From the NCBI RefSeq assembly GCF_031412435.1, contig NZ_JANODA010000083.1:17220-81219 (forward strand): a DNA stretch of 64,000 nucleotides. The letters are read 5' to 3'. The translations under genes were made by a program, and so were the position numbers. Position 1 is the first letter of the stretch. Each line of letters starts with the position of its first letter. The DNA comes from Brevundimonas sp. (lineage in GTDB: Bacteria; Pseudomonadota; Alphaproteobacteria; Caulobacterales; Caulobacteraceae). Below the pieces are notes generated by a model. The model worked only from the letters and a program-made list of their open reading frames with translations, was not told the origin of the DNA and did not search any database. Of this stretch, positions 2,842 through 33,271 are shown piece after piece.

Positions 2842-2888
2842 TTAGTCGTCAAATCCACCTTGAACGGATAGGGAACACACATTCGAGA

Positions 2889-2940: not shown

Positions 2941-2941
2941 C

Positions 2942-9796: not shown

Positions 9797-9798
9797 GG

Positions 9799-11223: not shown

Positions 11224-11234
11224 CGACCCCCTCC

Positions 11235-14355: not shown

Positions 14356-14362
14356 CCCGGCC

Positions 14363-14644
14363 TCACGCGTCCAGGTGACCCGGCAGGGCGAGGTGGCGGC
14401 GCAGGACATCGAAGAACCGCCGATCGACTTGGGCGGCCCACAGGCCGATGGCGTGGGCCGCCGCCCACCACAGCAGGCCCAGCCACCAGATGCGCAACGC
14501 CAGACCCAGGACCATGGCGATCGTGCCCATGGCGATCGCGTAATCCCTCGGCATCCCGGCCATCAGCACGGGTTCGGCCAGGGCCTGGGCGACGGGAAGA
14601 TCCCAGCCGTCCGGCCGGCCGTCCTGCGTGGACCCGGCCATCAT
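14363..14644 (-). CDS. trbD: TrbD / VirB3 T4SS protein
   Basis: 93 aa from the MMAGST... start, with two hydrophobic segments. The start overlaps the trbC stop. Canonical position between trbC and trbE. Confidence 0.8.
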   Translation of the reverse strand: MMAGSTQDGRPDGWDLPVAQALAEPVLMAGMPRDYAIAMGTIAMVLGLALRIWWLGLLWWAAAHAIGLWAAQVDRRFFDVLRRHLALPGHLDA

Positions 14645-14961
14645 CCGATCTCCGCCCCGCCGGCGAAGCCGAAGAAGTCGAGGAAGAAGGTCGAGGCGGC
14701 GAAGGCGATCGAGAGGCCGAACATGATGCCGAGGCCCCGGCGCATGGACGAGCCGTTCTCGCTCATGGCGATGCCGGCGCCGAAGACGACCACGGCCACC
14801 ACGGCTGCGGCCTGGACCACCGGGCCCGTGATGGATTCGACCACCTGCTGCAGCGGCCCCTCCCACGGCATCCCCGATCCGCCGGCCAGGGCCGGCCCGG
14901 CCATCATCAGGCCGCACGTGGTCATCGCGCCGAAGAGCCGGCGCCCCAGTAACCGTCGCAT
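14641..14961 (-). CDS. trbC: TrbC / VirB2 pilin precursor
   Basis: 106 aa with a long signal sequence ending ...GPALAGG and two TM helices (VVQAAAVVAVVVFGAGIAM; GLGIMFGLSIAFAASTFF). Confidence 0.8.
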   Translation of the reverse strand: MRRLLGRRLFGAMTTCGLMMAGPALAGGSGMPWEGPLQQVVESITGPVVQAAAVVAVVVFGAGIAMSENGSSMRRGLGIMFGLSIAFAASTFFLDFFGFAGGAEIG

Positions 14962-15507
14962 GTCAGGCTTCCTTTGTTTCAGCGCATCTCACCGCGCCTC
15001 AACACATTGCAAGCAAATATATCCACATACTGTCAACACTGTGGATCAAATATTTCTCACAACTCAATAACAACTCAAACCTGAGCTCGTTCAACTCGAA
15101 TCTCGACCCGTGGAGACTTGCTCCGGGACTTGCGGCAACTCTCGGGGAGACTTGTGACGTTCCCGTCGGATTCGCCGATGGGCAGGGGTTTGCGCCCCGT
15201 GGGAAGCCCGCGGGGTTTGACGGGAGGGTGGCGCCTGACTTTCGGAGCGGGGCGACGGCCACATTTCTGGCTGTCGCGGCGACCTGGCGCACGCGAGCGG
15301 CGCGCCCCTCCGACGGCGCGGTCATGATGAGGAAGCCGGTTTGGCGCTCTCGTATCGGGGCCAACACCGGTCCCGAAAACGGGCCAACCCTATGACGCCG
15401 TCGTCAGGTCGACGGAAGGCGGGCCTGGTCCTCGAATCCCTTTCGCTGGCGTTGAGGCGCGCTTCAGGCCTGATGCGGCGTGTCGAAGCCGGGCTGTCCC
15501 GGGCGTA

Positions 15508-16731
15508 TCAGCGGCCGTGCGCCAAAGGCGTGAGCGCCAGCAAGCGCTCGACTTCGGCTTCCACCGCGTCCGAGACCGGCAGGTGCGCGCGCTCGCGTCC
15601 CCAGACCTCTCGAAACCGTTGCACCGCCTCCGTGGCGGCATCGCGCGCCAGGGAGTCCGGTATACCGGCGCGGGCGGCCATGTAGACGAGCTCATCCATC
15701 GTAAACTCGGCCATTCGTTTCGTGCGGGCGTACTTCAGCGCCATGCTGTCGTCGGGGATGTAGACCGTGGTCGACAGGAAGTCGTAGCCGGGCGACAGCT
15801 GAGGCGTTCGCCCGTCCGGATAGATGAGCGACCAGTTCTTCAGATGCATGTCGGCATTGCCGATCAGGGTGTTGAAGACCAGCCGCCGGATGAGTTCGCG
15901 CACGCCGGTTTCGCCGGTCTCCAGCCACAGCACCTTGGCGAGGTAGCGGTAAGACCCCTTGTCGTACTTCTCCCCGGGATAGACGCCGAAGACCTGGGCG
16001 AAATCCTCGACATGGATCAGGCCGCCGTCCTGCCGACGATCGAACCGCCGGATCGCGAAGGCCTCTTCCTCGATCTTCCCGATGCCGTCCGGCAGACCTT
16101 CGATCTGATCGAGAGGGACGAGCTCCACATCCGGGATGTCCATGCCCATCGCGCTTGCCAGCCTCATCATCGAGAATTCATTGGCGGCCACGCCGCGATA
16201 GAGGGCGGAAGGCAGTTTGATGATCCAGTCCCCGCCTCGTCCGCTGCCCGGGATGGTCAGGCCGCCGTGGGCCTTCTCCAGGGCTGAAAACTTGAGCTGG
16301 ACGCCCGCCAGTGAGAAGCGAAGGGGACCGTCGCGCGCCGCGCCGTCGCCGGCCGGTTCGGGATCTTCACCCTCATCCGCTCGCGCCTCGCCGAACGGCC
16401 GCACCGTGACGGCTCCAGGAAGGTCCGGCCCCAGCACTTCGAGCAGGGGATATTCGCGCATCGGTTTGATGCCGGCCCGCTTGGCCAGATAGTCGCGCAG
16501 CACGCCCTCGGGCAGCAGGTTGGAAAAGAAGGGGATCAATCGCGTCTGGGTCGGACGATGGTCGCGAAGAAGGCCGCCCTGTTCGCCCTTGAACGACAGG
16601 CTGAGGGTCGGACGATCTTGATCCTCCGCATAGTCGTCATCGAAAGAGAAGATCGACTGATCACCGCCCAGGGCGTTGATCACCCCGACCCTGCGGTCAT
16701 TGAGGAAGACTTCCAGCGCATCTGCGGTCAT
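15508..16731 (-). CDS. hipA: HipA-family Ser/Thr kinase toxin (type II TA)
   Basis: HipA N-terminal couple domain (EVFLNDRRVGVI...LPEG) and kinase core with LIGNADMHLKNWSL (catalytic loop) and PGYDFLST (Mg-binding DF). Confidence 0.85.
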   Translation of the reverse strand: MTADALEVFLNDRRVGVINALGGDQSIFSFDDDYAEDQDRPTLSLSFKGEQGGLLRDHRPTQTRLIPFFSNLLPEGVLRDYLAKRAGIKPMREYPLLEVLGPDLPGAVTVRPFGEARADEGEDPEPAGDGAARDGPLRFSLAGVQLKFSALEKAHGGLTIPGSGRGGDWIIKLPSALYRGVAANEFSMMRLASAMGMDIPDVELVPLDQIEGLPDGIGKIEEEAFAIRRFDRRQDGGLIHVEDFAQVFGVYPGEKYDKGSYRYLAKVLWLETGETGVRELIRRLVFNTLIGNADMHLKNWSLIYPDGRTPQLSPGYDFLSTTVYIPDDSMALKYARTKRMAEFTMDELVYMAARAGIPDSLARDAATEAVQRFREVWGRERAHLPVSDAVEAEVERLLALTPLAHGR

Positions 16732-16733
16732 CG

Positions 16734-17354
16734 CTAGTCCTCGTCATCCAGGCTGTAGGCGGGACGTTCCGCGTGCGGGCGATGCAGGAGGCTGTTGCGG
16801 AGGGCTTTCAGCCAGACGGCGGCGTCGCGATAGGCCTGGGCGTGGCGGGGTCGCTCGGCGAGCGGATAGGTCAGGATGCCCTGAAGGTTGACCCTGAGGC
16901 GTTCCAGGTCGGCGAGGAGGTTGGGTCCCCGCAAAGCGGTCGCCAGCGGCTCCAGATCCCGAAGGCTGGTTGCGATCGAGGCAAGGTCCTCTCGTTCCGG
17001 AAATATCGCCCGGGCCTCTTCCGCCAGGCGGCGGAGCGTCGTCAGAAGCGTCCTGAGCGTTCGTTCCTCCGAACGTTCCTCGGCGGAACGAACGGCGGCC
17101 TCGACCGCCACGAGCGCCGACCGGGGGACGAGTTGGAGATCGAGATCAAGCGAGCGCGCCAACTGGAGCATGGTCGAGAGTTGGGGATCCGCTTCACCGT
17201 TCTCGATGCGAGAAATCTGGGCCTGGGTCAGGTTGGCGCGCGCGCTGAGGTCCCGTTGGCTCCAGCCTTTGGCGACACGCGCTTGCCGGACGATGTCCGT
17301 AAGCGGTTCAAGTCCATACTTTTTCGATATCTTGTTCTGCATCATTTTCGCCAT
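16734..17354 (-). CDS. XRE-family HTH protein, HipB-like antitoxin candidate with a ~130-aa C-terminal extension
   Basis: ...ARVAKGWSQRDLSARANLTQAQISRIENGEADPQLSTMLQLARSL is a Cro/C1 HTH. The stop is 2 nt from the hipA start. Confidence 0.7.
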   Translation of the reverse strand: MAKMMQNKISKKYGLEPLTDIVRQARVAKGWSQRDLSARANLTQAQISRIENGEADPQLSTMLQLARSLDLDLQLVPRSALVAVEAAVRSAEERSEERTLRTLLTTLRRLAEEARAIFPEREDLASIATSLRDLEPLATALRGPNLLADLERLRVNLQGILTYPLAERPRHAQAYRDAAVWLKALRNSLLHRPHAERPAYSLDDED

Positions 17355-17586
17355 TCTGATGCAGAGTTATATATCAGCTCCTAACAGGCGTCGAGACGCT
17401 GACACATAGAAATATATCACGCCTGGATCTTGATGTTCCATAAAATATCGGGCGTCCGCACTCCTGTTAAGCAGTTCTCACTCCCGAGCCTCAACCCCGC
17501 TCACATTCGCAGCATCATAGGGAACCAGACGAGCGGTTTCGTTTGTCCATGATGCACCAGATTATTCCTGACGGGGGGTCCCAGGC

Positions 17587-18543
17587 CTACGCCAACGCGC
17601 TGATCGCATAGGCGTCGTCGCCAGATGGCTCGATGCCGAGCACGGCCTCCACGGCCCGCCCCGTCGCCGTCCGCCGGATGTGCACGATCCGGTCGACGGC
17701 CTGGGCGATGGCGCGGCGCGGCGTGCGCGTCGACACCTCGGCGATCAGGTCCTCGACGCGGCGCAGCACATCGTCCGCCGAGTTCGCATGGATCGTCGAA
17801 AGCCCGCCGGGATGGCCGGTGTTCCAGCTCTTCAGCGTCTCGAGCGCGGCGGCGCCGTCCCTCATCTCCCCGACCACGATCCGGTCCGGACGCATCCGGA
17901 GAGCGTCACGAACCAGGTCCACAACGCCGATCGCCACCGGCTGGCGCCGGGTCAGGACAGAGACGACATCCCAGGCCGAACATTGCAACTCGGGCGTATC
18001 CTCCACCAGGAAGACCCGGTCCCCGGCGAAGGCGGGCTCGGCCAGCACCGCATTGGCCAGGGTCGTCTTGCCCGAACCCGTCCCGCCCGAAATCAGGATG
18101 TTGAGCCGGTCCACGGCGGCGGTTCGAAGCGCATCGGCCTGGCCTTCGGTCATCATCGCGCCGAGCACATAATCGTCCAGGGTCCAGATCACGGCGGGTC
18201 GCTTTCGGATCGAGAAGGCGGGCGCGGAAGTCACCGGGGGCAACAGGCCCTGGAACCGTTCGCCCGTGCCTGGAAGAACGCCCGAGAGCCGCGGGTCGTC
18301 CCGGGTCACCGTCTCCCCGACATAGTCGGCGATCAGCCGGACCACCCGTTCCCGCGCCTCGGCAGAGAGGGTAACCCCCGTATCCCGACGCCCCTCGCCG
18401 CTCCGGTCCAGGACCAGACGGCCGTCGGGGTTGGCGAGGATCTCGACCACCTCCGGCTCGACCAGAGCGGCCAGCACCGTGTCGCCGAGCGCGTGGCGCA
18501 GGGCCTCCAGCTTGCGGCTGGCGATGATGGGATGGGCGGCCAT
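17587..18543 (-). CDS. trbB: TrbB / VirB11-type conjugative-transfer ATPase
   Basis: Walker A ISGGTGSGKTT and a VirB11/PulE-type core (VGEMRDGAALETLKSWNTGHPGGLSTIHAN). Confidence 0.9.
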   Translation of the reverse strand: MAAHPIIASRKLEALRHALGDTVLAALVEPEVVEILANPDGRLVLDRSGEGRRDTGVTLSAEARERVVRLIADYVGETVTRDDPRLSGVLPGTGERFQGLLPPVTSAPAFSIRKRPAVIWTLDDYVLGAMMTEGQADALRTAAVDRLNILISGGTGSGKTTLANAVLAEPAFAGDRVFLVEDTPELQCSAWDVVSVLTRRQPVAIGVVDLVRDALRMRPDRIVVGEMRDGAAALETLKSWNTGHPGGLSTIHANSADDVLRRVEDLIAEVSTRTPRRAIAQAVDRIVHIRRTATGRAVEAVLGIEPSGDDAYAISALA

Positions 18544-18986
18544 CAGCCGGCCGGGTCGAACGACCGGACTTCGGGTGCGACCTCTCCAGGCCGGTCCTTT
18601 CGGCCCGCCACGATCCGCGCCGCGGTGGCGTCGAGGAGATGCTCGATCCGCCGGTCGACCGCCGCCTGGACCGTGGGGTCCTGGTCGACCAGGGCGTCCG
18701 GAAGCCGGAGGAAGAAGGCGTGCGCCACCTCGATCAGCAGCTCCTGAACGATCTGCATGTCCCGGGCCGTAGACTTCATATGCCCGCGCAGCGCCTGTTC
18801 CAGGGTCAGCAGCCGATCGTCCGGATCAGCCTGCGGGCGCTTCTGCAGGCCCCGGGCGATCGCCCGGCCGGCCGCCTGGCTCAGCGGCATCCTGCCGCTC
18901 TTGGCCTCCCGGTTCAGGCCCGCCAGCACCTTGGGGTCGTTGAGATAGACCTGGACCCGGGAGGTCCCTGCGTCACGTCTGGCCAT
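18543..18986 (-). CDS. Ribbon-helix-helix (CopG-like) protein between traG and trbB
   Basis: N-terminus SRVQVYLNDPKVLAGLNREAKSGRMPLSQAAGRAIARGL resembles an RHH fold. Overlaps the traG stop and the trbB start. Confidence 0.6.
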   Translation of the reverse strand: MARRDAGTSRVQVYLNDPKVLAGLNREAKSGRMPLSQAAGRAIARGLQKRPQADPDDRLLTLEQALRGHMKSTARDMQIVQELLIEVAHAFFLRLPDALVDQDPTVQAAVDRRIEHLLDATAARIVAGRKDRPGEVAPEVRSFDPAG

Positions 18987-20853
18987 CGCCCAGTCCTTTC
19001 AGATGATCGAGCGCCGCGTCCTGTGCGGCCATTTCCTGCGCCACCCGCCCGTAGATGTCGGCCACCCGCGCCGCCATCTTCCGGTCGTCCATCGCCGCCG
19101 CCACCTCCTTGAACAGGGGCAGGCCGGCTTTCGGGTCCTCGCCGAGACCGCGGCGTCCGGTCCAGGGATGCTGTGACGACGGCGGCCCATCCAGCCTCGC
19201 GGCCTGGTCGGGCGCCCTGTCCCGCGCCCGGGTGCGAAAGGGCTCGCGCCGGTCGTAGAGAAGTTTCCGTGTCCTCAGGGGGCGGACGCCGGCGGCGAAG
19301 ATCAGCTGGTCGTCGTCGGGAAGCGCCCGCACCTCGCCCGGTTCCAGCAGGGGGCGCTCGATCTGGGAGCGGGAGACCGAACTGCGTCCGGCCGCCAGCC
19401 CGGCCGGGCTGCTGCGGCTCGTCCGCGTCTCCAGGATCGAGCCGGTCAGCTTTGACACCTTGTCTTGGGTCAGGGGATCGAGGGCCGAGAAGGCGGTGTA
19501 GACCGCGCAGTTGTCGAGGATGGTGTTGTTGGCCCCATAGGTCTCGACGATATCGTTCAGCGACTGGGCGACGAACATCACCTTGACCCCGTAGCCGCTC
19601 AGGAGCCGCAAGGACTTCTCGAAGAAGCTGACCCGCCCCAGCAGGGGAAACTCGTCCATCAGCATCAGCAGCTTGTGCCGTTTGGTCCGGCCGTCCGACG
19701 CCTCGGTCTCCCGCACGGTGAGCGACTGGGCGGCGGCGTAGAAGAACAACCGCACGAGCGGACGCAGGGCCGCCGCGTCCGCCGGCGCCACCTGGACATA
19801 GAGGGACAGGGGGACGGGCGCGCACATGAGGTCGCCCATGGAGAAGTCGGACCGCGACAGGCAGCGCTCGACGTCCTCGCCGGCCAGCCATTTGAGGTAG
19901 GACCGCGCCGTCCCCTGGACCGAGGTGCGGAAGCGGTCGTGCATCGCCGCATAGCCCTTGACCGCCGTGGCGATGAACGGGTGGGTCTCCGGCCGGCCCC
20001 CGGCGCCCGGGCGGTGCAGGGCCCGGGCCATGACGTCCGCTGCGTCGTCGAGGTCGGCCAGCAGGCCGCGCACGGTCAACAGGGTCTTGTCGGCGTCCTC
20101 GGCCGTGTACAGCACATGCAGGATCACGGCCTCCAGGATCTCGGTTGCCGCCTTGTCCCAGATCGCCTCGTCGTCCCGGGCGCCCCCGGGGTCCGACAGG
20201 ATGGCGACCAGGCGCTGGACGTGGGCCAGTTCACCCGGCCCGGGCAGGATCTCGGCCAGCGGATTCCAGCAGGCCGACGCCGGATCGCGCGGATCGAAAT
20301 AGAGGGCATGACTGAACCGGCATCGCCAGCCCGCGCTGAGACGCCAGAGCTCGCGTTTCGGATCGTGCACGAGGACGCTTGCGGGCCAGGACAGGAGCGT
20401 CGGCATGACGTGGCCGCGTCCCTTGCCGGACCGCGTTCCGCCGGTGACGAGCGACGGACGCAGGTCGGTCGTCGCCAGGATCCGCCGGCCCATGACACCC
20501 AGGATGCAACCCGCCCTCGCCGTCAGGCCGGCCTTGCGGGCCTCGTCCGGACCGCCCCAGCCCCTGACACGGCGGATCGTCGTCCCGCCTTCGGCCATCA
20601 CCCCCAGGCCGAGGCCGCCCGCCCCGCCCAGCAGAACCCACAGTCCGGACCGCGACAGCGCCTCGCCGGCCTCGTCCGCGAAAGCGGTCTTCCAATGCAG
20701 GATCGACCAGGGCCAGTAGACGACGAGATCGCCTCCCCAGGACGCGCCCGGCCCGAGCGCCGCGTCGAACGCATAGGTCCAGGCAAAGGCCTGGGTGGCC
20801 GCCTGAAGGCCGACGAGGAGACCGAAGGCCAGTCCGGTCAACCGCCCGATCAT
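18973..20853 (-). CDS. traG: TraG / VirD4 type IV coupling protein
   Basis: 626 aa. N-terminal TM helices, Walker A TGGTRSGKGRG, Walker B-like LLMLMDEFP. Confidence 0.9.
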   Translation of the reverse strand: MIGRLTGLAFGLLVGLQAATQAFAWTYAFDAALGPGASWGGDLVVYWPWSILHWKTAFADEAGEALSRSGLWVLLGGAGGLGLGVMAEGGTTIRRVRGWGGPDEARKAGLTARAGCILGVMGRRILATTDLRPSLVTGGTRSGKGRGHVMPTLLSWPASVLVHDPKRELWRLSAGWRCRFSHALYFDPRDPASACWNPLAEILPGPGELAHVQRLVAILSDPGGARDDEAIWDKAATEILEAVILHVLYTAEDADKTLLTVRGLLADLDDAADVMARALHRPGAGGRPETHPFIATAVKGYAAMHDRFRTSVQGTARSYLKWLAGEDVERCLSRSDFSMGDLMCAPVPLSLYVQVAPADAAALRPLVRLFFYAAAQSLTVRETEASDGRTKRHKLLMLMDEFPLLGRVSFFEKSLRLLSGYGVKVMFVAQSLNDIVETYGANNTILDNCAVYTAFSALDPLTQDKVSKLTGSILETRTSRSSPAGLAAGRSSVSRSQIERPLLEPGEVRALPDDDQLIFAAGVRPLRTRKLLYDRREPFRTRARDRAPDQAARLDGPPSSQHPWTGRRGLGEDPKAGLPLFKEVAAAMDDRKMAARVADIYGRVAQEMAAQDAALDHLKGLGDGQT

Positions 20854-20854
20854 C

Positions 20855-21478
20855 TCAGTCCACCCCAGGCATGGCGCCCCGCTCCGCCTCGGCTTCGAGG
20901 ATCAGCAGGGGTGCGGCTTCGATGCGGCGCTGGTGATAGGCGACGAGCGCCTCGACCAGATCCGAGGCCGGGTCCGCGAACAGGCTGACGAGGGCGTCCT
21001 CTTCGCGATCGAGATCGCGGAACAGTCGTCGCTCGGCCGACGACAGCTGCACCAGCTGCCGACAGACCCGCTGGTAGGCGTCGACCAGGGCGGCGCTGCC
21101 GGTGCTCTTGACCGCCCGGAGAAGGTTGGCCGCCAGGTCCCGGTCCGGGTGATCCGACCCGTTCAGCCCCTGCTCGCGCCCCTGCGTCCGGCCTGCGCCG
21201 CTCAGACTGTTCAGGACGCACTGCAGCCGGAACGCGAACCGGTCCTTCACCGTCGCTGTGTCCAGGCGCGGCGCGAGAAAGCCGCCGGTCGGCGCGCGTT
21301 CGATGAGCCCGTAGCCGCAGAGCCAGACCAGGGCTTCGCGCACCGGGGTCGTGGAAATGTTCAGCCGCCGCGCCTCATCGAGGATGACCACCGGACGGCC
21401 GGGCGTGTACAGGCCCTGCTCGGCGCGGGACCGAAGGCTCTCCAGGGCCGTGGCGAAGGGGTCGCGTCTGCGGGTCAC
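20855..21478 (-). CDS. GntR-like winged-HTH regulator, immediately upstream of traG
   Basis: GTG 21476-21478 preceded by GGGAGAG. ...ILDEARRLNISTTPVREALVWLCGYGLIER resembles a GntR wHTH, with a helical C-terminal domain. The stop is 2 nt from the traG ATG. Confidence 0.6.
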   Translation of the reverse strand: MTRRRDPFATALESLRSRAEQGLYTPGRPVVILDEARRLNISTTPVREALVWLCGYGLIERAPTGGFLAPRLDTATVKDRFAFRLQCVLNSLSGAGRTQGREQGLNGSDHPDRDLAANLLRAVKSTGSAALVDAYQRVCRQLVQLSSAERRLFRDLDREEDALVSLFADPASDLVEALVAYHQRRIEAAPLLILEAEAERGAMPGVD

Positions 21479-21708
21479 TCTACTCTCCCACCTGAAAACC
21501 ACCTTTTGGCGAAAGTGAGCCTCCGCGCCAAAGGCTGGAGCGGATTTTGGCCGCGCCGCGCCGGAAAATGTCGCCGGCGGCGACACGAACCGCGTCAAGA
21601 CGCACCAGATTCTGTCGCAAGTTCGAGTTTTCCACCTGCATCCGGGGGTTGAGATGTTGATCGCGCGACGCGGTCGCACCACAACCGGACTCGGAAAGGT
21701 CGCGGTGG

Positions 21709-22194
21709 ATGGCAGGCGTAGCGGCGGAGCAGATGCGTGACGGCGAGTTGCTCTCGGCGGCCTTGAAGTCAGTGCGGACGTCCCGCGGCCTGTCGACCCG
21801 CCAGGTCGCCGACGGGATGAACATGTCGGTGCGCACCTATCAACGGTTTGAGGCCGGGGCGACCCGGCTGAACCTGGATCACATCCACCGCTTCGCCCGG
21901 GCCACCTCCAGCGATCCCTATGGAATCCTCATGGCCGTGATGATCGGCTCGCCGGGGTTCGCACGGGCGGTCGCCGACAATATGCTGGCCACGGTCCTGA
22001 TCGTGGGGGTGCAGAATCTCGAGCAGTCGGTCGGCGACCGCATCGCCGACCTCGACACCCGCTCCCTCGTCGGCGCCGTGGCCGGGCTGTTCGACGATCT
22101 CGCTGAAAGGGTCCGCAGCGCTGATCCCGCCGAGGACTGGCTGGCCAGGGGCCGGGAGGCGCTGACGGCCAGGCGACCGAAGCCGGGCCGCTGA
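21709..22194 (+). CDS. XRE-family HTH transcriptional regulator
   Basis: ...SRGLSTRQVADGMNMSVRTYQRFEAGATRLNLDHIHRFARAT is a Cro/C1 HTH. Divergent from the GntR-traG operon and directly upstream of the lasso precursor. Confidence 0.75.
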   Translation: MAGVAAEQMRDGELLSAALKSVRTSRGLSTRQVADGMNMSVRTYQRFEAGATRLNLDHIHRFARATSSDPYGILMAVMIGSPGFARAVADNMLATVLIVGVQNLEQSVGDRIADLDTRSLVGAVAGLFDDLAERVRSADPAEDWLARGREALTARRPKPGR

Positions 22195-22290
22195 GGTGCG
22201 GAATATACTCCAGATATAGCTTTGATGCCGGCCGGTCCTGGCGCTCACTCCGGTCGCCACACCCCGTGGCGACCCACCAAGGAGAGAGTG

Positions 22291-22413
22291 ATGACTACGG
22301 CCAAACTCCGCCTCGTCCGTTTCGGCAGCGCCCGGGCGCTGACGCGCGACATGCTGACCGGCGCCTATATCGAGCGCGAGGTCAACGACAGCTTCCTGCC
22401 GCCCGTCGGCTGA
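22291..22413 (+). CDS. Lasso-peptide precursor candidate (A gene), 40 aa: MTTAKLRLVRFGSARALTRDMLTGAYIEREVNDSFLPPVG
   Basis: ATG preceded by AAGGAGAG (22279-22286). Small ORF immediately upstream of the B and C genes. Two Thr-x dipeptides are each followed 9 residues later by an acidic residue. Not resolved in the ORF track, which shows a longer 63-aa version. Confidence 0.65.
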   Translation: MTTAKLRLVRFGSARALTRDMLTGAYIEREVNDSFLPPVG

Positions 22414-22420
22414 AGGCTAG

Positions 22421-22448
22421 GCGGGCGACCGCCCAGGCGGTCGCCCGC
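22421..22448 (+). promoter_or_regulatory. Perfect 12-bp stem / 4-nt loop hairpin 8 nt after the precursor stop (possible attenuator between A and B)
   Basis: gcgggcgaccgc-ccag-gcggtcgcccgc, read directly. No T-run follows, so it is not a classic intrinsic terminator. Confidence 0.6.
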
Positions 22449-22608
22449 ACCCGCCTGCAGGATCGCAGGCCGTCCGACCGGAGCTCGCCATGCGCCGTCC
22501 CCTCCTTCTTCCCTCCCGATCGCGGTGCGGCCTGACGCACCGTCGCCGTGCGCCACGTGCGCACGCCTGGGGCATCCGGCCCTGCGACCGCCGGCCGTCG
22601 ACAGGCCG

Positions 22609-23283
22609 ATGACACCGGCCGCGCCCCTGACCCCCGCCCCGGCGGCCCCGCCTCTGTGGTGCGCGCCGGGCGTCCATCTGGCCGAAGTCGACGAGGACAT
22701 CATCGTCCTCGATCTCAAGGCGGACGCCTACGACTGCCTCATGGGCGGCGCGGGAAGCATCCGCCTGATCGAAGGCGGCGGCCTGGAGGTCTCCGATCCC
22801 GAGGTCCGCGAAGCCCTGGCCGCCGCCGGCATAGCGACGCCCACGCCTCACCGGACGCCCCGCCCGCGCCTCATGGCGCCCGCCCGGGAATTGCCGAGAA
22901 CCGGTTCCGTCTCAGGGCTCGGGACGCTTCAGGCCGTCACCGCCCTGGTCATCGCCACACTGGGCTTCCGCGGGCAGTCGCTCGAGGCCCTGATCGCCGT
23001 CGACGCCCCGGGCCCCGCCTCCACGCCCCTCGACGAGACGGAACTCGACCGCCTCGTCTGCGCGGTTCGCAGCGCCCGCCCCTTCGTCCCCTTCCAAGGG
23101 GAGTGTCTGCAGCGATCCTTCGAGCTCCGGCGGTTGCTCGCCGCCCGGGGGATCGCCTCCGACTGGATCTTCGGCGTCCGGACCTGGCCTTTCGCCGCCC
23201 ATTGCTGGATCCAGATCGGCGACCTCGTCATCGGCGACAGGCTGGAGCGGGTCCGGTTCTTCACCCCCATCCTGGCGGCCTGA
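22609..23283 (+). CDS. Lasso-peptide B protein: fused PqqD-like RRE and transglutaminase-like Cys protease
   Basis: N-terminus ...GVHLAEVDEDIIVLDLKADAYDCL is PqqD/RRE-like. C-terminus has FQGECLQRS (Cys), FAAHCWIQIGD (His) and ...D. The start is uncertain: ATG 22609 or GTG 22525. Confidence 0.85.
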   Translation: MTPAAPLTPAPAAPPLWCAPGVHLAEVDEDIIVLDLKADAYDCLMGGAGSIRLIEGGGLEVSDPEVREALAAAGIATPTPHRTPRPRLMAPARELPRTGSVSGLGTLQAVTALVIATLGFRGQSLEALIAVDAPGPASTPLDETELDRLVCAVRSARPFVPFQGECLQRSFELRRLLAARGIASDWIFGVRTWPFAAHCWIQIGDLVIGDRLERVRFFTPILAA

Positions 23284-23286
23284 CCC

Positions 23287-25074
23287 GTGGGCGACTTTCT
23301 CATCGTTCACCCTGCCCGCGGCGATGCGGCCGCAAGCCGACGCGCCGAAGACCTCGCGGACGAGGCGCGAACGCACGGCTGGCGGATCGAGCCGCTCAAG
23401 GCCCGGACCTGGCTCGGCGCCCGGGGCCCCACACCGCCGAGACCCCTGGTCGTGGGGCCCTGGACCCTGATCGGCGACGTCTTCGACCGCCGCTCGCCGG
23501 TTCTTCCCGTCACGGCGCCGGGCGATCCCTGGGCCTATGAGCGCAAGATGATGGCCCGCTTCTGGGGCCGCTACGTCGGCGTCACCTTTGCGTCGGACGG
23601 TCAGATCTCGGGCCTGTTGCGCGATCCGTCCGGGGCGCTGGAATGCGTCACCTGGGCGCAGGACGGTCTGACCCTGGTCGCGTCCGCCGCAGAGGACTGG
23701 CTCATCCGGCGCCTGCGCCCGCCCTGGCGCATCAATGTCGAGCGCCTGGCCTCGGCCCTGCGCGACCCGGTTCCGGCCACCGGCCCCCTGCTGCTGGACG
23801 GGCCGATCGCGCTCGAACCCGGGACGGTCCAGCCCTTGCTCCCGTCGCGGCCGGCGGACATCCTCTGGCGGCCGACGGCGTTCGCCCGACGCAGTCTCGA
23901 ACGACCGCCGACGATCGACCGGGCCGCGCGCAGTCTGCGTGACGCCATCGACGAGGCCGTGACCGGCCTGGCCTCCCTCCCCGGCCCTCTGGCCGCGGAG
24001 GTCTCGGGCGGGCTCGATTCCAGTCTCGTCGCCGCCAGTCTCGCGCGTGGCGGAGCCGGGAGCGTCCGCCTCTGGATCAATGCCCACGGCCCGACCCCCG
24101 AGGCCGACGAGAGAACCTATGTTCAGGCGCTCGCCGATGCGCTCGGGTTCGCACCCGACTTCATCCCGCATCCCACAGGGCCGCTCACCCCCGCAGGCTT
24201 GCAGGAGTCCTCACAGGGGTTCCGCCCGGGCCTGGCCGCGCTCGACCGCGCCCACGATCTCGCCTGGGCCGCAAGGATCGGCGCCGTCGGGGCGACCGCC
24301 GTCTTCACCGGCAAGGGCGGAGACTCGATCCTGCTTCAGCGGGCCACCCCGGACGTCTTCGCCGACCTGTGGAAGGCGCGGGGCTGGAGAGCGCTGCTGC
24401 ACACCGACGTGCTTGAACTGGCGGCGGCCAACGAGACCTCTGTCTGGTCCATGGTCGCCGCCGCCCGGCGTCACCTGCGCCGCGGGACCGTCTGGCCCGT
24501 CCGTGACCATCCCCTCCTGACCCCCATCGACAGCCCTTCGACGGTCCATCCCTGGCTGGAAGACTGCGAAGCCTTCGGTCCGGGCAAGGCGCTCCAGATC
24601 GCCGGGGTGGCCGACAGCGTGTCGCGTCACGGCCCGTCCATGCTCACAAAGACCATCGACATCCGCCATCCCCTCTGCGCCCAGCCGGTGATCGAGACCT
24701 GCCTCGCCCTCCCCACCTCCGTTTTGACAACAGGCGGGCGGGACCGGGGTCTGGCGCGGATCGCGTTCCGCGATCGGCTTCCCCGCCAGATCCTCGATCG
24801 CCGGTCGAAGGGCGACATGACGAGCATCTATGGCCGGATGATCCTCGACAATCTGCCGGTCCTCCGATCCTGGCTGCTCGACGGCCGGCTCGCCGCCCTG
24901 GGGGTGATCGACAGGACCGTGGCCGAGGAACACCTCACCCACGAGACCCTCCTGTGGCAGGGCCGGTATTCCACCCTCTTCGTGGCGGCGGCCTACGAAG
25001 GCTGGATCCGCGCCTGGGAGGACCGGCTCGGCCCGGCCGCCCGGCGCCTGCCGGCGGGTCGAACCCCGCCGTGA
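23287..25074 (+). CDS. Lasso-peptide cyclase (C protein, asparagine-synthetase B homologue)
   Basis: 595 aa. PP-loop EVSGGLDSSLVAAS (24004-24021). The size and its position 3 nt after the B stop are typical of McjC-type cyclases. Confidence 0.9.
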   Translation: MGDFLIVHPARGDAAASRRAEDLADEARTHGWRIEPLKARTWLGARGPTPPRPLVVGPWTLIGDVFDRRSPVLPVTAPGDPWAYERKMMARFWGRYVGVTFASDGQISGLLRDPSGALECVTWAQDGLTLVASAAEDWLIRRLRPPWRINVERLASALRDPVPATGPLLLDGPIALEPGTVQPLLPSRPADILWRPTAFARRSLERPPTIDRAARSLRDAIDEAVTGLASLPGPLAAEVSGGLDSSLVAASLARGGAGSVRLWINAHGPTPEADERTYVQALADALGFAPDFIPHPTGPLTPAGLQESSQGFRPGLAALDRAHDLAWAARIGAVGATAVFTGKGGDSILLQRATPDVFADLWKARGWRALLHTDVLELAAANETSVWSMVAAARRHLRRGTVWPVRDHPLLTPIDSPSTVHPWLEDCEAFGPGKALQIAGVADSVSRHGPSMLTKTIDIRHPLCAQPVIETCLALPTSVLTTGGRDRGLARIAFRDRLPRQILDRRSKGDMTSIYGRMILDNLPVLRSWLLDGRLAALGVIDRTVAEEHLTHETLLWQGRYSTLFVAAAYEGWIRAWEDRLGPAARRLPAGRTPP

Positions 25075-25460: not shown

Positions 25461-25964
25461 TCACCGAAGCGGCGTGTAGCGGCAGGTGAAGGCCGGATCG
25501 CCGGTCACAGGACTGGGCGTCAGATGGATGTGCAGCCGCTGAGCCTGGGCTGCGTCGTCCAGGGCGAAGGCCTGCTCGGCCTCATACATTTCGTCCCGAT
25601 GGCCATCCTGCCAGTCCGCGGCCCGCTTGAGGGCGCGAGCCTTGGCGGCGGCGACACTGTCGGCGACGACAAAGACGTTCCGGTGTTGCTCAGCGAACGC
25701 TAGGCCGTCGTATCCGCCCAGGTTCACATAGTAGAGCTTCTCGCCTCCCTCGTAGGGTTCGGGACGGAGTGCGACCTCATAGCCATCCGCATGCGTGATC
25801 TCCGACCAGCAATCGACGTGGAGGCTCCCCGGACGGCCCCACCACTGCGCCAGAAGCACCGGATAGGTCGCTTCGATCGCAGGCGCCGCGACAAACCGCA
25901 TGTCGTGCACCTCGATGTTTGCGCCGGGATGCTCGCCGCCGATGTAGATCGCGAACAGTTTCAT
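25461..25964 (-). CDS. DUF1543-family protein
   Basis: MKLFAIYIGGEHPGANIEVHDMRFVAAP... matches my recollection of the DUF1543 N-terminal signature. Two repeats of the module appear to be present. Confidence 0.6.
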   Translation of the reverse strand: MKLFAIYIGGEHPGANIEVHDMRFVAAPAIEATYPVLLAQWWGRPGSLHVDCWSEITHADGYEVALRPEPYEGGEKLYYVNLGGYDGLAFAEQHRNVFVVADSVAAAKARALKRAADWQDGHRDEMYEAEQAFALDDAAQAQRLHIHLTPSPVTGDPAFTCRYTPLR

Positions 25965-25974: not shown

Positions 25975-27636
25975 TCAGGCCGCCACGTTCAGGGCCTTGG
26001 GTACAACAGTGCGGGTCCGCAGGACCAGCGCCAGTCGTCGGCCGACGATCTCGCCGATCTCGTGTGAGCTGGTTATCCCCTGCACGAAAGGATGCCGGCC
26101 CATGAGGAAGGGCAGGCTGAGGCAATAGAGCCTGTCTGCGGGGACGGCTTCGGCAACGGGCCGGAAGACGTCATCAACGGCGATCCCCCGGACGGCGTCT
26201 GGATCACTGGCCACCGCGTCCCGAACGATGCCCTGCTCCAGGAGCGACAGGAAAGGGAACTGGATGCCAGGCAGAGCGCGCTGACCCGTCGCCTCGATGA
26301 AGACGGGGTAGTGAGTTGATTGATCGCCGACCATCACACGCACCCCGCCCTCCGGGCAGCGGGTGTCGACGCTGTGTTCGTCGCCGAGCGCGATCACATC
26401 CAGCTTCCCAGCCTTGTGAAGCGCCAGGATCCGCTCAATGGATTCGTGAGGCACGCCGGCATAGACATCGACGAAGATGGGCTTGAACACGCGGTTGAAG
26501 CGTTCGAATTCCGATTGGTCGAGGTGTGGGACGATAACGGCCACCACCTCGTGCATGCGAAGGATCGCGTCGCGCCACGCCACCGTCACCCTGGCGGCGT
26601 GGTTCGCTCGCGCCTCTTGCAGATTGGCGGCGGCCCACGCGAACGGGTCGGTCGTCGCACGCGTCGCAAAATAGGCGTCCCCGAACTGTTCGAGCGTCGC
26701 CTCAGCCAGACCGGTTTCCCGCGCATAGTCCGGATCCAGGTTCGTCAGTTCGCACCTGAACAGATCGAACACCGCGTCCAGCAAACTGTCTCGCCTCTGA
26801 CCTAGCAGTTCTTCCACGGCCTCGGGCGTGCAGATCGCCAACGGTGCATGCGGCAGAGGGAAGTAGAAGTCGGCCTCCGGCAGGAGCCCCTTTCGCGACA
26901 TCATGGTCATGTGGAAACCCTCGGTGTCGGCGCCCGCCTGGTAGATCAGACCGTCCTCGCTTCGCATGAACTGGCCGTGGGTTGCGGCCAGGGCGACCGC
27001 CGTGTCGATCGCCGTCAATGAAGATCCCCGGATGCCGATCTCGGTAGCCGGAACGGTCGCGAGCGTCGCTGCCGGCCAAGGACTGAGGAAGTAGCCCGGG
27101 CGGACCTGCTGTTGCGACGGCCACTGATGCCCCGTGGCCAGAACCACGTGATCAAATGTCTGCGTACGCGTCCCGCCCTGCGGGGGCGAAACCCACGTCA
27201 GCTCCATCCCGAAGGACTTGTTCGCGGCATCGACGACGCGGCAGCCCAACCGAACGTCGAGGGTGTTCCCGGAGGCACGAACCCGCTGGGCCAAAGCGTC
27301 GAACTGACTTTCGAAATAGCGACCCAGCACGACGCGTGGGACAAAGGTCCGTTCGTCGACGTCCGCCGGGTTGACCCCCATGGCTTCAAGCTGGGAGTTC
27401 GTCTGCGACATGAGCCACTGGATCAGCGTCTCCGCCACGGGTGGGATCTCGATGCTGGCGATGTTTGACAGCATGGCGGGGTCATTCCAGCCGGGCGTGT
27501 AGGGGCTTCCTGAGCCGGCATGCGCCTTGGCCTCAAACACGGTGATTCTTGCGTTTTTCACGCCGCGCGTCAGCAGAGCGTTCAAGGCGTAAAGTGTTGT
27601 CGGTCCAGCTCCGACGAATGCGATCGATGGCGTCAT
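25975..27636 (-). CDS. FAD/NAD(P)-binding protein (PF13454-like)
   Basis: N-terminal Rossmann motif IAFVGAGPTTLYAL. 553 aa, directly upstream of the DUF1543 gene. Confidence 0.7.
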   Translation of the reverse strand: MTPSIAFVGAGPTTLYALNALLTRGVKNARITVFEAKAHAGSGSPYTPGWNDPAMLSNIASIEIPPVAETLIQWLMSQTNSQLEAMGVNPADVDERTFVPRVVLGRYFESQFDALAQRVRASGNTLDVRLGCRVVDAANKSFGMELTWVSPPQGGTRTQTFDHVVLATGHQWPSQQQVRPGYFLSPWPAATLATVPATEIGIRGSSLTAIDTAVALAATHGQFMRSEDGLIYQAGADTEGFHMTMMSRKGLLPEADFYFPLPHAPLAICTPEAVEELLGQRRDSLLDAVFDLFRCELTNLDPDYARETGLAEATLEQFGDAYFATRATTDPFAWAAANLQEARANHAARVTVAWRDAILRMHEVVAVIVPHLDQSEFERFNRVFKPIFVDVYAGVPHESIERILALHKAGKLDVIALGDEHSVDTRCPEGGVRVMVGDQSTHYPVFIEATGQRALPGIQFPFLSLLEQGIVRDAVASDPDAVRGIAVDDVFRPVAEAVPADRLYCLSLPFLMGRHPFVQGITSSHEIGEIVGRRLALVLRTRTVVPKALNVAA

Positions 27637-28393
27637 TTCCCCTGAATGCGCGACGCGCGCAAAGGCGCCGCAACCCGGTAATTTTCACGCAATGTCAGGG
27701 GCATCGGCGCCTGCAGAGTCCAACACCCGACTCCCGTGCTGTCCTGGCGAAACTGAAAAGGCGCCGGTGGACCCCTTCGCCCTGGGTAGAGCTTGAACAG
27801 GCCTCCCCTGGGCTCGGACTGTCCGCCAACCACCCGAAAGACCTTTAGCGGGTCCGCTTTCCGGCGGACCCGCCGCGGGCTGGAGAGAGATGACCGGGCG
27901 CACGCGTGTCTTGATAAAAGCGGTCGGCCTTCAAGGTACGCAACACGTCGAAGCCATCGCCGCTCCTGACACTTACGGGCCGTTGGCAACGTCCGCTGGC
28001 GGGACAGGCTCCGACGTTTGCACGAGGTTACACCGGAACTCTCAAGGTGTGCCCATCCATGCCGCAGATCGGCAGCTTCGACCACGGCCGCCGGGGGCCT
28101 GCGATGACGGATGCCGGAGCAGCGCAGTCTGGCTCCGTTTCCAAACCACCCGTGGGTTAGCCGCGGCTCAATGGCTGGCCTTCAGGCAGGCAAGACCAAG
28201 ACAGCCCCGCTGTTTCGGGTGGCGGATAGATAAATCACGCCGCTATATGGACACAGGCCGGTCAAAGTTTGCTAGTTTTGCATCCAAGAGCGAACGATAA
28301 TGCGCACTATACTTGTAGTGAAGCTTTATTTTGTCGGAACCAACGACGCAGGAGAGGGCTAACGACGCCTGTATCAGTGTTCGGAGTCGTTTT

Positions 28394-29566
28394 TTGCGTG
28401 TCTTGTCGGTGTTCGGAACTCGTCCTGAGTCCATAAAGATGGCTCCGGTCGTCAAGGCGCTCTCCCGGGAGCCGGGTATTGACAGCCAAGTCTGCATCAC
28501 CGGGCAGCACCGCGAGATGATCGCTCCGGTCCTCGAACTCTTCGACATCGTTCCTGATTACGACCTGGCGATCATGTCGGCCGACCAGTCGCTTAACGGT
28601 ATCGTCAGCCGCGTCATCGGCGAACTGGATGAGGTGCTCGAGCGCGCGAAACCGGATCGGATCCTGGTCCATGGCGACACCGCGACGGCGATGGCGGCCG
28701 CGCTCGCCGGCTTCCAGCGGAAAATACCGGTGGCCCACGTCGAGGCAGGTCTGCGCACCTACGACCTGACCAGCCCCTGGCCCGAGGAGATGAATCGCCG
28801 GGTCGTCGACCTGACGTCAGACCTGCTGTTCGCCCCTACACGGCTGTCGAGGGACAATCTGACCCGCGAACGTCTGTCCGGGCGGGTGGTCGTGACCGGC
28901 AACACGGTCATCGACGCCTTGCGGATGGTCACAGCCATGCTGGATCGTTCGCCGCAGCTGCGCGCTCGCCTGGACGGTCAGCACCCCGAGATCCGTGCAG
29001 GCCGACGGATGGTGCTGGTGACCGGCCATCGCCGCGAGAACTTCGGTGACGGAGTGCGCGGCATCTGTGCGGCCCTGATCGCCCTGTCGGAGCGTTCGGA
29101 TATCGACATCGTGTATCCGGTTCACCTGAATCCGAACGTGCGCGGACCGGTGACCGAGCTGCTGGCGGGTCGCCGCAACATCCACTTGATCCCGCCGCAG
29201 AGCTATCTCGGCTTTGTCCGGCTGATGCAGCGCGCCCACGTCATCCTGACCGACTCCGGCGGGGTTCAGGAGGAGGCTCCGTCCCTCGGCAAGCCCGTCC
29301 TGGTCATGCGCGATGTCACGGAGCGTCCCGAGGCCCTTCAGGCGGGCACCGCCCGGCTGGTCGGCACCGACGCGGCGCGGATCACCCAGGAGGTGGGTCA
29401 GTTGCTCGACGACGAGGGCGCTTATCGCGCCGTGTCCCGGCTCGCCAACCCCTATGGCGACGGCCACGCCGCCGACCGCATCGTCTCCGTCCTCATGGGG
29501 CGGACGATCCGCGAGTTCACGAGCGAGACGGCGTCCGAGCCCCTTCCGCTCGCCGCCAACGCCTGA
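28394..29566 (+). CDS. wecB: UDP-N-acetylglucosamine 2-epimerase (non-hydrolysing, WecB/MnaA type)
   Basis: (M)RVLSVFGTRPESIKMAPV..., HGDTATAMAAALAG, HVEAGLRT, TDSGGVQEEAP. TTG 28394 is preceded by GGAG. The track's ORF starts at TTG 28331. Confidence 0.9.
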   Translation: MRVLSVFGTRPESIKMAPVVKALSREPGIDSQVCITGQHREMIAPVLELFDIVPDYDLAIMSADQSLNGIVSRVIGELDEVLERAKPDRILVHGDTATAMAAALAGFQRKIPVAHVEAGLRTYDLTSPWPEEMNRRVVDLTSDLLFAPTRLSRDNLTRERLSGRVVVTGNTVIDALRMVTAMLDRSPQLRARLDGQHPEIRAGRRMVLVTGHRRENFGDGVRGICAALIALSERSDIDIVYPVHLNPNVRGPVTELLAGRRNIHLIPPQSYLGFVRLMQRAHVILTDSGGVQEEAPSLGKPVLVMRDVTERPEALQAGTARLVGTDAARITQEVGQLLDDEGAYRAVSRLANPYGDGHAADRIVSVLMGRTIREFTSETASEPLPLAANA

Positions 29567-29574
29567 TCGACATC

Positions 29575-31701
29575 ATGTTCACCACCCTTTCGGCCGAGTG
29601 GATCGGCTTCCTGCAGACCTATGCGACCACGCTTCAGATCATGGCGATCGTGACGGTCGTCCTGATCGCCGTCTCTTCGTTCGACGACCTTGTGGTTGAC
29701 GCCTGCTTCTGGACCCGGGCGCTCTATCGCAAGCTTTTCATCCGGCCTCGCCACGACCGGCTGACCCCGGCCGAACTGGGGGGCCGGCCAGAGCAGCGTC
29801 TGGCCATCATGGTGCCGGCCTGGCGGGAGTTCGACGTCATCGAGGTGATGGTCGAGAACGCCGTGCGGTCGTTCGACTACGATAACTACGTCATCTTCAT
29901 CGGCACCTATGCCAATGACCCCGAGACCCGGTCGCTGGTTCGCCGCCTGGCCAAGCGACACGGTCGTGTCGTCGGCGTCGACCTGGCCCAGAACGGGCCG
30001 ACCTCCAAGGCCGACTGCCTGAACGGCATCGTCCGGGCCATCTTCCAGATGGAAAAGACCACCGGCCAGACCTTCGCCGGCATGATCCTGCACGACTGCG
30101 AAGACGTGGTTCACCCGCTGGAGCTGAAGTTCTTCAACTATCTGCTGCCGCGCAAGGACCTGATCCAGATCCCGGTGGTCTCGCTGGAGCGCGGCTACGG
30201 CGAGTTTGTCGCCGGCACCTACATGGACGAGTTCGCCGAGTGGCACGGCAAGGATCTGGTGGTCCGCGAGGCGGTCGCTCGCGCCGTACCGTCGGCCGGG
30301 GTCGGCACCTGCCTGTCGCACGCGGCCATGGCCACACTGGCCGAGGACCATATGGAGCCGTTCAACATCTACAGCCTGACCGAGGATTACGACATCGCCG
30401 CCCGTCTGGCGAAGGCGGGCCTGTCGTCGATCATCGCCGTCTATCCGGTCAACTACCGCGTCAATCGTCGCTCCTGGCTGGGTCTGGGGCCATCGCGCAC
30501 TGTGTCCCTGCGCATGCCGTTGTGCGTGCGCGAATATTTCCCCAATACCTTCCGCTCGGCCTACCGCCAGAAGGCGCGCTGGACTCTCGGCATCTCGATC
30601 CAGGGCTGGGCCCAGCTGGGCTGGAGCAAGTCGCCCAAGGCCAACTACTTCCTGTTCCGCGACCGCAAGGCGCTGTTCACCCCCAGCCTCGCTTTGGCCG
30701 GCTATTTCATCGTCATCAACTACTTCCTGCTGGAGCTGTTGGGCCTGGTGGAGGCGGGCGAACTGGCGCCGATCTTCCCGGACTATCGCTGGATCACCGT
30801 CCTGCTGGCTTTCAATCTGCTGGCGCTGGTGCTGCGCGTCGTGCAGCGCGCCTGGTTCGTCGGCCGCATCTACGGCGGCGTACACGCCGTCCTGTCCTTC
30901 CCCCGTATGGTCGTCGGCAGCGTCATCAACTTCGCTGCCTCGATCCGCGCCATCCGACTGTATGTCTCGCATCTGGTATTCCGGACGCCAATCACCTGGG
31001 ACAAGACCGCCCACCAGTTCCCCACGGACGCGGCCCTGGCGCAGGACCGCCGGCAACTGGGCGCGATCCTGCTGAGCTGGCGTGCGGTGACCGAGGCCGA
31101 ACTTCAGGACGCCCTGGCCGAACAGGCGCTCAGGCCGCAGCGGCTGGGCCGCATCCTGCTCGCCAGGGGACTGCTGGATGACGAGACGCTTGCCGAAGCC
31201 ATGTCGGTCCAGACCGCCTTGCCGCGGGCCGAAATCACGGCGGCCGGGGTCGACGCTCACAGCGACGGCCTGTCGAAACGGCTCTGCATCGAGTTGCGAG
31301 CCATTCCGGTCGGGCAGCAACCCAACGGCGCGCCCGTGCTGGCTGTGTCGGGTCCGTTCAGCGCCGAGGAGGAGGCCAGGATCTCCGCCGCCTTTGACGC
31401 GCCCGTCACACTCGTCGTGGCCCGTGAGAGTGAAATCGTGGCCGGCCTGCGACGGCTTGGCGGCGACGCCGAAGCCTTCGATCAGACTGCGTCGGCGCCC
31501 CTGCTGGGCGACATGTTGATCGGCGACGGGCACATCGCTGCCGACGATCTGGAGCGCGTGCTTCAGGGATACCACCCCGATCGCGACGGAAGGCTTGGCG
31601 AATATCTCGTCCACACGCGTTCCATCTCCACCGAGGCCCTCGCCTCGACCCTCAGCGCGCAGCGCGCGGCTCTGGCCGCCGCCCGGATACAAGCCGCATG
31701 A
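29575..31701 (+). CDS. NfrB-like processive family-2 glycosyltransferase with C-terminal MshEN-type (c-di-GMP-binding) domains
   Basis: N-terminal TM segment, GT2 core (HDCEDVVHP, TEDYDIA, YRQKARW = QxxRW), further TM helices, then tandem RLGxxLLxxGxLxxxxLxxAxxxQ motifs. Confidence 0.8.
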   Translation: MFTTLSAEWIGFLQTYATTLQIMAIVTVVLIAVSSFDDLVVDACFWTRALYRKLFIRPRHDRLTPAELGGRPEQRLAIMVPAWREFDVIEVMVENAVRSFDYDNYVIFIGTYANDPETRSLVRRLAKRHGRVVGVDLAQNGPTSKADCLNGIVRAIFQMEKTTGQTFAGMILHDCEDVVHPLELKFFNYLLPRKDLIQIPVVSLERGYGEFVAGTYMDEFAEWHGKDLVVREAVARAVPSAGVGTCLSHAAMATLAEDHMEPFNIYSLTEDYDIAARLAKAGLSSIIAVYPVNYRVNRRSWLGLGPSRTVSLRMPLCVREYFPNTFRSAYRQKARWTLGISIQGWAQLGWSKSPKANYFLFRDRKALFTPSLALAGYFIVINYFLLELLGLVEAGELAPIFPDYRWITVLLAFNLLALVLRVVQRAWFVGRIYGGVHAVLSFPRMVVGSVINFAASIRAIRLYVSHLVFRTPITWDKTAHQFPTDAALAQDRRQLGAILLSWRAVTEAELQDALAEQALRPQRLGRILLARGLLDDETLAEAMSVQTALPRAEITAAGVDAHSDGLSKRLCIELRAIPVGQQPNGAPVLAVSGPFSAEEEARISAAFDAPVTLVVARESEIVAGLRRLGGDAEAFDQTASAPLLGDMLIGDGHIAADDLERVLQGYHPDRDGRLGEYLVHTRSISTEALASTLSAQRAALAAARIQAA
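31054..31212 (+). other. Tandem 24-residue MshEN motifs with a 5-residue spacer (inside the nfrB-like CDS); a second, looser pair lies at 31501-31662
   Basis: QLGAILLSWRAVTEAELQDALAEQ-ALRPQ-RLGRILLARGLLDDETLAEAMSVQ. Second pair: LLGDMLIGDGHIAADDLERVLQG / RLGEYLVHTRSISTEALASTLSAQ. Confidence 0.6.
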
Positions 31702-33236: not shown

Positions 33237-33271
33237 CGCCCCGATGGGCCAGAGCCTGCTGGAATAGCGGC

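Follow-up and report, generated by a model that had tools for sequence, protein, structure and literature searches.

Gene content of the lasso peptide locus

The DNA analysed here, a 64-kb stretch from Brevundimonas sp. (hereafter the window), carries a lasso peptide cluster in which a short precursor gene (A) is followed on the same strand by genes for a fused B protease and a C cyclase. An Xre-family regulator lies directly upstream and a GntR-like gene is divergently transcribed from the operon. Related loci are identified below by L numbers and related precursor proteins by P numbers, and a slash within a peptide marks the leader/core junction. The features of the cluster are as follows:

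20855 to 21478, minus strand: GntR-like regulator, divergent from the lasso operon, with a weak Pfam GntR match
21709 to 22194, plus strand: Xre-family helix-turn-helix regulator (Pfam HTH_31 and HTH_3), directly upstream of the precursor
22279 to 22284, plus strand: Shine-Dalgarno sequence AAGGAG, 6 nt ahead of the ATG, read directly from the sequence
22291 to 22413, plus strand: precursor gene (A), 40 codons, translated as MTTAKLRLVRFGSARALTRDMLTGAYIEREVNDSFLPPVG followed by a stop
22291 to 22347, plus strand: predicted leader peptide, 19 aa, MTTAKLRLVRFGSARALTR, with Thr(-2)-Arg(-1) at its C-terminal end
22348 to 22410, plus strand: predicted core peptide, 21 aa, DMLTGAYIEREVNDSFLPPVG, in the register of brevunsin (PDB 5ZCN)
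22348 to 22350, plus strand: codon of Asp1, the predicted donor of the ring amine
22372 to 22374, plus strand: codon of Glu9, the predicted donor of the ring carboxylate
22421 to 22448, plus strand: G+C-rich hairpin with a 12-bp stem and no T-run, just 3' of the precursor stop
22609 to 23283, plus strand: lasso B, 224 aa, an N-terminal domain fused to a transglutaminase-like cysteine protease
23287 to 25074, plus strand: lasso C cyclase, 595 aa, asparagine-synthetase-like (Pfam Asn_synthase PF00733, 1.3e-22)

The start coordinate of the GntR-like gene follows the gene call in L014, a contig that matches the window at 100% identity there, and the start codon of B follows the genes called in L014 (100% identical) and L011 (92%).

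The translation at 22291-22413 was exactly as given in the original prediction, which had picked out this small open reading frame as a lasso precursor. It is a genuine precursor gene and not a chance ORF, because it has a Shine-Dalgarno sequence, a hairpin after its stop codon, B and C genes directly downstream and a family of related small proteins. Its position 195 nt upstream of B follows the class II arrangement of a short precursor gene ahead of the maturation genes. No second precursor copy was found within the 64-kb window, and neither Pfam nor NCBIfam assigned the 40-aa product to a family.

The 66-nt segment containing the hairpin has a folding energy of -42.6 kcal/mol (z = -4.2), which was not equalled by any of 200 shuffled versions. 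It was not called as an intrinsic or canonical terminator. Hairpins with other stem sequences occupy the same position after six other precursor genes (two in L001 and one each in L002, L006, L007 and L011), and this recurrence with different stems argues for a conserved role at the RNA level. The element is probably an attenuator or a transcript-stabilising structure. Judging from other lasso operons, it may control how much precursor transcript is made relative to enzyme transcript.

Both maturation enzymes carry the residues expected of their activities. B matched Pfam Transglut_core3 (PF13471, 9.6e-24) and NCBIfam lasso_biosyn_B2 (NF033537, 1e-20), both above the cut-offs, and across 60 homologues its catalytic residues C166, H198 and D210 were invariant and D205 nearly so, as expected of a cysteine protease. 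An AlphaFold model of B reached a pLDDT of 93. Its N-terminal ~90 residues are conserved and confidently modelled, and are presumed to bind the leader, though no PqqD domain was detected there by Pfam. When the model was compared with the PDB using Foldseek, the top match was 3ISR, a putative cysteine protease (E = 0.16), followed by the lasso RRE TbiB1 (5V1V, E = 0.38); both proteins are of the kind expected, but neither match is significant. Matches of C to the NCBIfam macrolactam and lasso cyclase models all fell short of the curated cut-offs; its PP-loop SGGLDS (residues 240-245), the signature of an ATP-dependent cyclase, was invariant in the alignment. A search for solved structures related by sequence to B or C found none.

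Homologous precursors and the cleavage register

The original prediction had held that no reading of this precursor gives a canonical lasso cleavage site and had offered three ways to process it: a cut after Thr18-Arg19, with a nine-residue ring from Asp20 to Glu28 in a 21-aa core; a cut after Thr23-Gly24, with a nine-residue ring from Ala25 to Asp33 in a 16-aa core; or a core beginning at Gly24, with a seven-residue ring closed on Glu30. The residue counts behind all three were correct. It was also right that no Thr-x-Gly in the peptide is followed by an Asp or Glu at core position 7-9; the rule on Thr at position -2 is nevertheless obeyed, and it is only Gly1 that is missing.

A first homologue search with the window peptide returned two near-identical 40-mers; in P0002, 85% identical to the window precursor, Lys replaces Glu30. 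Loci with related cyclases in Brevundimonas genomes have 40-aa ORFs at the same place, for example MTTTKLRLVSFGSAKVLTRDGAGVEYLEMNIRNSKFPTLG, a second copy adjoining it, and MNTLKLRLVTLGAAHALTRDGAGFQHLEANIRNGKYPVEG. A word-index profile search built from such precursors gathered 45 related small proteins, each a cluster representative. Since an index of five-residue words could favour sequences containing ...LTRD, the search was repeated exhaustively with HMMER, without a word index, over 1.84 billion representatives, which yielded 37 related small proteins. Pooling both searches with the window precursor and the two L001 precursors gave 70 distinct cores.

All 70 had Thr at position -2, the place that Thr18 holds relative to Asp20. 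Core position 1 was Asp in 65, Ala in two, and Gln, His and Ser in one each, and the ring acceptor was Glu9 in 67 and Glu8, with a ring one residue shorter, in the other three. Among the close relatives the pattern was tighter still: Asp1 and Glu9 were each present in 42 of 42 cores, placing an acidic residue within positions 7-9, and Leu(-12), Gly(-8), Ala(-6), Leu(-3), Thr(-2) and Arg(-1) were invariant in the 40 distinct close leaders. This conservation identifies the column after Thr-x as core position 1 and Glu9 as the fixed acceptor. A Gly or other small residue at position 1, where the window has Asp, is a rule of frequency and does not define the class. We therefore read the window peptide as a brevunsin-family class II precursor that is cleaved after Thr18-Arg19 to release the core DMLTGAYIEREVNDSFLPPVG, with a nine-residue Asp1-Glu9 ring, and put the probability of this reading at roughly 0.88. 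The alignment of homologous precursors that the original prediction had proposed as a check thus settled on the first of its three options, with Thr18 and Glu28 conserved and the other two cuts rejected.

The HMMER profile also reached P0070, a near-copy of caulonodin VII (...HLTR/SGIGVLFPEPNMVRRWN compared with SGIGDVFPEPNMVRRWD), in which the Thr(-2)-x/X1...Glu9 register is kept and the first residue is different. Some ORFs of the family are overlong: 2817-3053 in L003 (Brevundimonas sanguinis) encodes 78 aa (...SVHTR/AEVGIQKAELTPIYRYDD...), P0040 has 68 aa and P0049 has 104 aa. These could be read-through products, frameshifts or unusually long cores.

Comparison with brevunsin

An experimentally solved member of the family has the same junction. 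P0015 (MNTFKLRLVSFGSAKALTRDGMGEEFIEGLVRDSLYPPAG) is an NCBI-annotated Brevundimonas diminuta protein found on 59 contigs, and its last 21 residues are identical to chain A of PDB 5ZCN, 'brevunsin' (DGMGEEFIEGLVRDSLYPPAG). Its leader/core junction reads MNTFKLRLVSFGSAKALTR/DGMGEEF..., so that the leader ends in ...ALTR as it does in the window. Brevunsin, a lasso peptide of B. diminuta, was expressed in the heterologous host Sphingomonas subterranea, and its structure was determined by NMR (Kodani et al. 2018, J Ind Microbiol Biotechnol 45:983, cited in PMC7549694). As the solved chain is the C terminus of P0015, a homologous enzyme pair cuts after ...LTR and releases a product that begins with Asp, and the original prediction was wrong to regard an N-terminal Asp as without precedent. 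Lasso rings typically close on an acidic side chain (Asp or Glu) at position 7, 8 or 9. Brevunsin has no acidic residue in that range apart from Glu9, and the known ring sizes therefore point to an Asp1-Glu9 linkage. One table in a review (PMC12427821) prints brevunsin as GDMGEEVIEGLVRDSLYPPAG, which hides the Asp1 start; we take this to be a misprint, as neither PDB 5ZCN nor the B. diminuta gene agrees with it. Neither the brevunsin core nor '5ZCN' was matched in full-text searches of the searchable literature, and the window core was likewise not found there.

The window and brevunsin precursors align over all 40 residues without gaps at 60% identity, in the same cleavage register and within one HMMER family. 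Identity is concentrated in the leader (15 of 19 residues), whereas nine of the 21 core residues are shared (D1, I8, E9, V12, D14, S15, P18, P19 and G21). The two peptides thus have in common the ...ALTR/D junction, Asp1, Glu9, a 21-residue core and the motif D14-S15-x-x-P18-P19-x-G21; they differ within the ring, where the window has DMLTGAYIE and brevunsin DGMGEEFIE, so that Gly2 and Gly4 of brevunsin are absent from the window. Compared with the brevunsin locus (L006), the window proteins are 49% identical for B, 59% for C, 68% for Xre and 66% (by tblastn) for the GntR-like protein, for which the gene calls in L014 and L011 give a length of 207 aa; C is closer to that of L007, at 67%. Gene order is also shared with the brevunsin locus, running VirB4, VirB3, TrbC, VirB11, VirD4, GntR-like, Xre, A, B, C. 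With a homologous precursor in the same register, and homologous B and C genes in the same order and context, the window peptide is an uncharacterised member of the known brevunsin family and not a rule-breaking oddity.

A likely route to the mature peptide can be drawn by combining this precedent with the window genes. Recognition of the 19-residue leader would presumably fall to the conserved N-terminal part of the fused B protein, whose cysteine protease would cut after Thr18-Arg19, making Asp20 the first residue of the core. Using ATP, the C enzyme would then adenylate the side chain of Glu28 (core Glu9) and couple it to the alpha-amine of Asp1, closing a nine-residue macrolactam around the C-terminal tail. 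The expected product would be DMLTGAYIEREVNDSFLPPVG minus one water, with a monoisotopic mass of 2304.110 Da and [M+2H]2+ at m/z 1153.062. Several elements of this route have direct support, namely the gene content, the homology and catalytic motifs of the enzymes, the conserved register and a cleavage site identical to that of a solved family member; that the window peptide is made and threaded in lasso form is what we infer. In the alignment, Phe16 and Leu17 of the window core fall opposite Leu16 and Tyr17 of brevunsin, and the plug residues are probably located around them.

No new enzymology is needed to account for this precursor, since it keeps Thr(-2) and brevunsin provides a solved example of an Asp start. 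What looked like a breach of the lasso cleavage rule is thereby resolved, and the remaining value of the observation is modest: Asp1 was already known from brevunsin, and what is new here is an uncharacterised core of a known family.

A minimal cluster without isopeptidase and receptor

The window differs from most related loci in what follows the C gene. In L001-L010, which include the brevunsin locus, the cluster is followed by convergent genes for a Peptidase_S9 protein (a lasso isopeptidase homologue) and a TonB-dependent receptor; the S9 gene is also present in L017 and L019-L021, with a TonB receptor called in L019 and L020. Neither gene was detected in the 64-kb window by tblastn at E <= 1e-3, with the isopeptidases of L006 and L007 and the receptor of L007 as queries. 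L011 also has neither, and its homology to the window stops at about 25179. In the window, two other genes stand in place of the pair after C:

25461 to 25964, minus strand: DUF1543 gene
25975 to 27636, minus strand: FAD/NAD(P)-binding gene

The clade of the window, L011 and L014 thus carries a minimal Xre-A-B-C version of the cluster. The leader of astexin-1 from Asticcacaulis excentricus ends in ...LGKASAETR/G, which resembles ...FGSARALTR/D of the window, and the convergent S9 isopeptidase and TonB-dependent receptor pair of astexin-type clusters is the same as that of the usual brevunsin-family locus. The window, in contrast, has Asp1 where the astexins have Gly1, and without an adjacent S9 and receptor pair it does not belong with the isopeptidase-associated, astexin-type clusters of proteobacteria (Maksimov & Link 2013).

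With the isopeptidase and receptor absent, the biology of this clade may differ from that of its relatives, and their loss could mark a shift in how the peptide is used. Alternatively, the cluster may be a remnant, silent or in decay, in which the cleavage site is read correctly and no mature peptide is made in the organism. Consistent with decay, the window clade lost, or never had, the two genes; the cluster has no exporter gene beside it; and a scan of 21600-22700 gave no sigma-70 promoter match. However, A, B and C are all intact and full-length, with no frameshifts and with conserved catalytic motifs, and the precursor has a single substitution in 40 residues relative to L011, where identity of the cluster DNA is 92%. 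The missing isopeptidase is also dispensable for biosynthesis, as in astexin-type clusters, where it is not needed to make the peptide. Taken together, we regard a remnant as improbable.

Alternative cleavage sites

Cleavage after Thr23-Gly24 would give a 16-aa core, AYIEREVNDSFLPPVG, with an Ala1-Asp9 ring. On the window sequence this is the most canonical of the three options, as it combines Thr at -2 with Ala1 and an Asp at core position 9, and an Ala start has a precedent in caulonodin VI. Its residues are poorly conserved, however: among the 42 close cores Thr23 occurs in five, Gly24 in 18 and Asp33 in 13, and most relatives (for example DGAGVEYLEMNIRNSKFPTLG) have no Thr-x site or acidic residue at the place needed. 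In brevunsin, whose processing enzymes are homologous, the first residue is the Asp aligned with Asp20. This cut was rejected on conservation and we consider it very improbable; the shortness of the resulting tail, raised against it in the original prediction, was not what decided the matter. A core starting at Gly24 can be dismissed with near certainty, for although Gly is the commonest first residue of lasso peptides and a seven-membered Gly1-Glu7 ring is inside the known range of 7-9, Thr would fall at -1, Gly24 is not conserved, and Glu30, the ring acceptor, is Lys in P0002 and Glu in just one of the 42 close cores.

The first core residue in related lasso systems

Cleavage after Thr18-Arg19 places the window peptide among several lasso systems that do not start with Gly. 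Caulonodins IV-VII of Caulobacter sp. K31 have Ser or Ala as their first residue (Zimmermann et al. 2014, Chem Sci 5:4032). Like the window peptide, they come from the Caulobacterales, have a first residue other than Gly and follow the ...LTR/X1...E9 register, but position 1 is Ser or Ala and not Asp, and the core sequences are otherwise unrelated. The palassoptides begin with Phe1 and Glu1, starts for which a JACS paper of 2026 saw no precedent in characterised lasso peptides (PMC13632552). Palassoptide A2 (Glu1) resembles the window peptide in that a lasso cyclase accepts an acidic residue at core position 1; it differs in coming from Actinomyces, with split B1 and B2 proteins and an eight-residue ring, and no sequence relationship to the window was found. 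[quoted passage not shown]

Closer to the window, sister clusters with the same synteny have other predicted first residues: Leu1 and His1 together in L017, Gln1 in L019 and Ala1 in L021. Their precursors are located as follows:

L017, 4803 to 5117: precursors with predicted Leu1 and His1
L019, 5001 to 5120: precursor with predicted Gln1
L021, 2152 to 2468: two precursor copies with predicted Ala1, one of them with Lys at -1

This range of starts suggests that position-1 specificity is relaxed or shifted in the related B and C enzymes. When seven Asp1-associated cyclases were compared with four from the non-Asp1 sister clusters, 21 alignment columns discriminated between them, and among these were R28, R142 and R460, invariant in the seven and non-basic in the four. 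As the Asp1 and non-Asp1 enzymes are also two phylogenetic groups, the comparison provides a lead and no more. The pattern of the three arginines would fit the published charge-complementary recognition of position 1 (PMC13632552), and a dedicated charge-complementary pocket in the B or C protein of this clade might enforce Asp1, with R28, R142 and R460 as candidate residues; we put this forward as a speculative idea that is rather unlikely to be correct. If it were true, the Asp1 and sister clusters would together amount to a natural series of specificities at lasso position 1. How the first core residue is selected is an active engineering question, and the ~70 natural cores, in which Asp is nearly constant at position 1 and the other ring positions vary freely, could together with the Ala, Ser, Gln, His and Leu starts of the sister group guide the study of its selection by proteases and cyclases.

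Genomic context

The lasso cluster is situated at the right edge of an island carrying an integrase and type IV secretion/conjugation genes (913-20853), which comprises:

913 to 2478: tyrosine integrase
6892 to 11223: VirB10, VirB9, VirB8 and VirB6
11932 to 14409: VirB4, with VirB3 also in the set
17587 to 18543: VirB11
18973 to 20853: VirD4

The arrangement VirB11-VirD4-GntR-Xre-A-B-C was found in every related locus with enough flanking sequence. The GntR-like gene is kept beside the lasso operon in all related loci, and the Xre gene lies upstream of the precursor in L001, L004-L011, L014 and L017-L021. Given this recurring arrangement, the brevunsin-family cluster looks like cargo of a conjugative element.

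A fragment resembling the 3' half of a tRNA (about 724-770, minus-strand sense ...GGGTCGGCGGTTCGAACCCGTCGCCGCCTACCA) adjoins a hairpin just upstream of the integrase and looks like the remnant of an att site. A search for the island boundaries found no intact tRNA, Rfam match or second copy of the fragment in the window, and the other end was not located. Between VirB3/VirB2 and VirB11 lies a minus-strand pair (15508-17354) encoding a HipA-like kinase (HipA_C and Couple_hipA, 407 aa) and a helix-turn-helix partner (206 aa); the pair is absent from this place in L004-L011, which have other small genes instead. Beyond the lasso cluster, a plus-strand operon (28331-34096) encodes a UDP-GlcNAc 2-epimerase (411 aa), a family-2 glycosyltransferase with a C-terminal MshEN domain (708 aa), an outer-membrane protein with TPR and NfrA_C domains (512 aa) and a 287-aa protein without a Pfam match, a set that we take to resemble the wecB/nfrB/nfrA exopolysaccharide (phage N4 receptor) system of E. 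coli.
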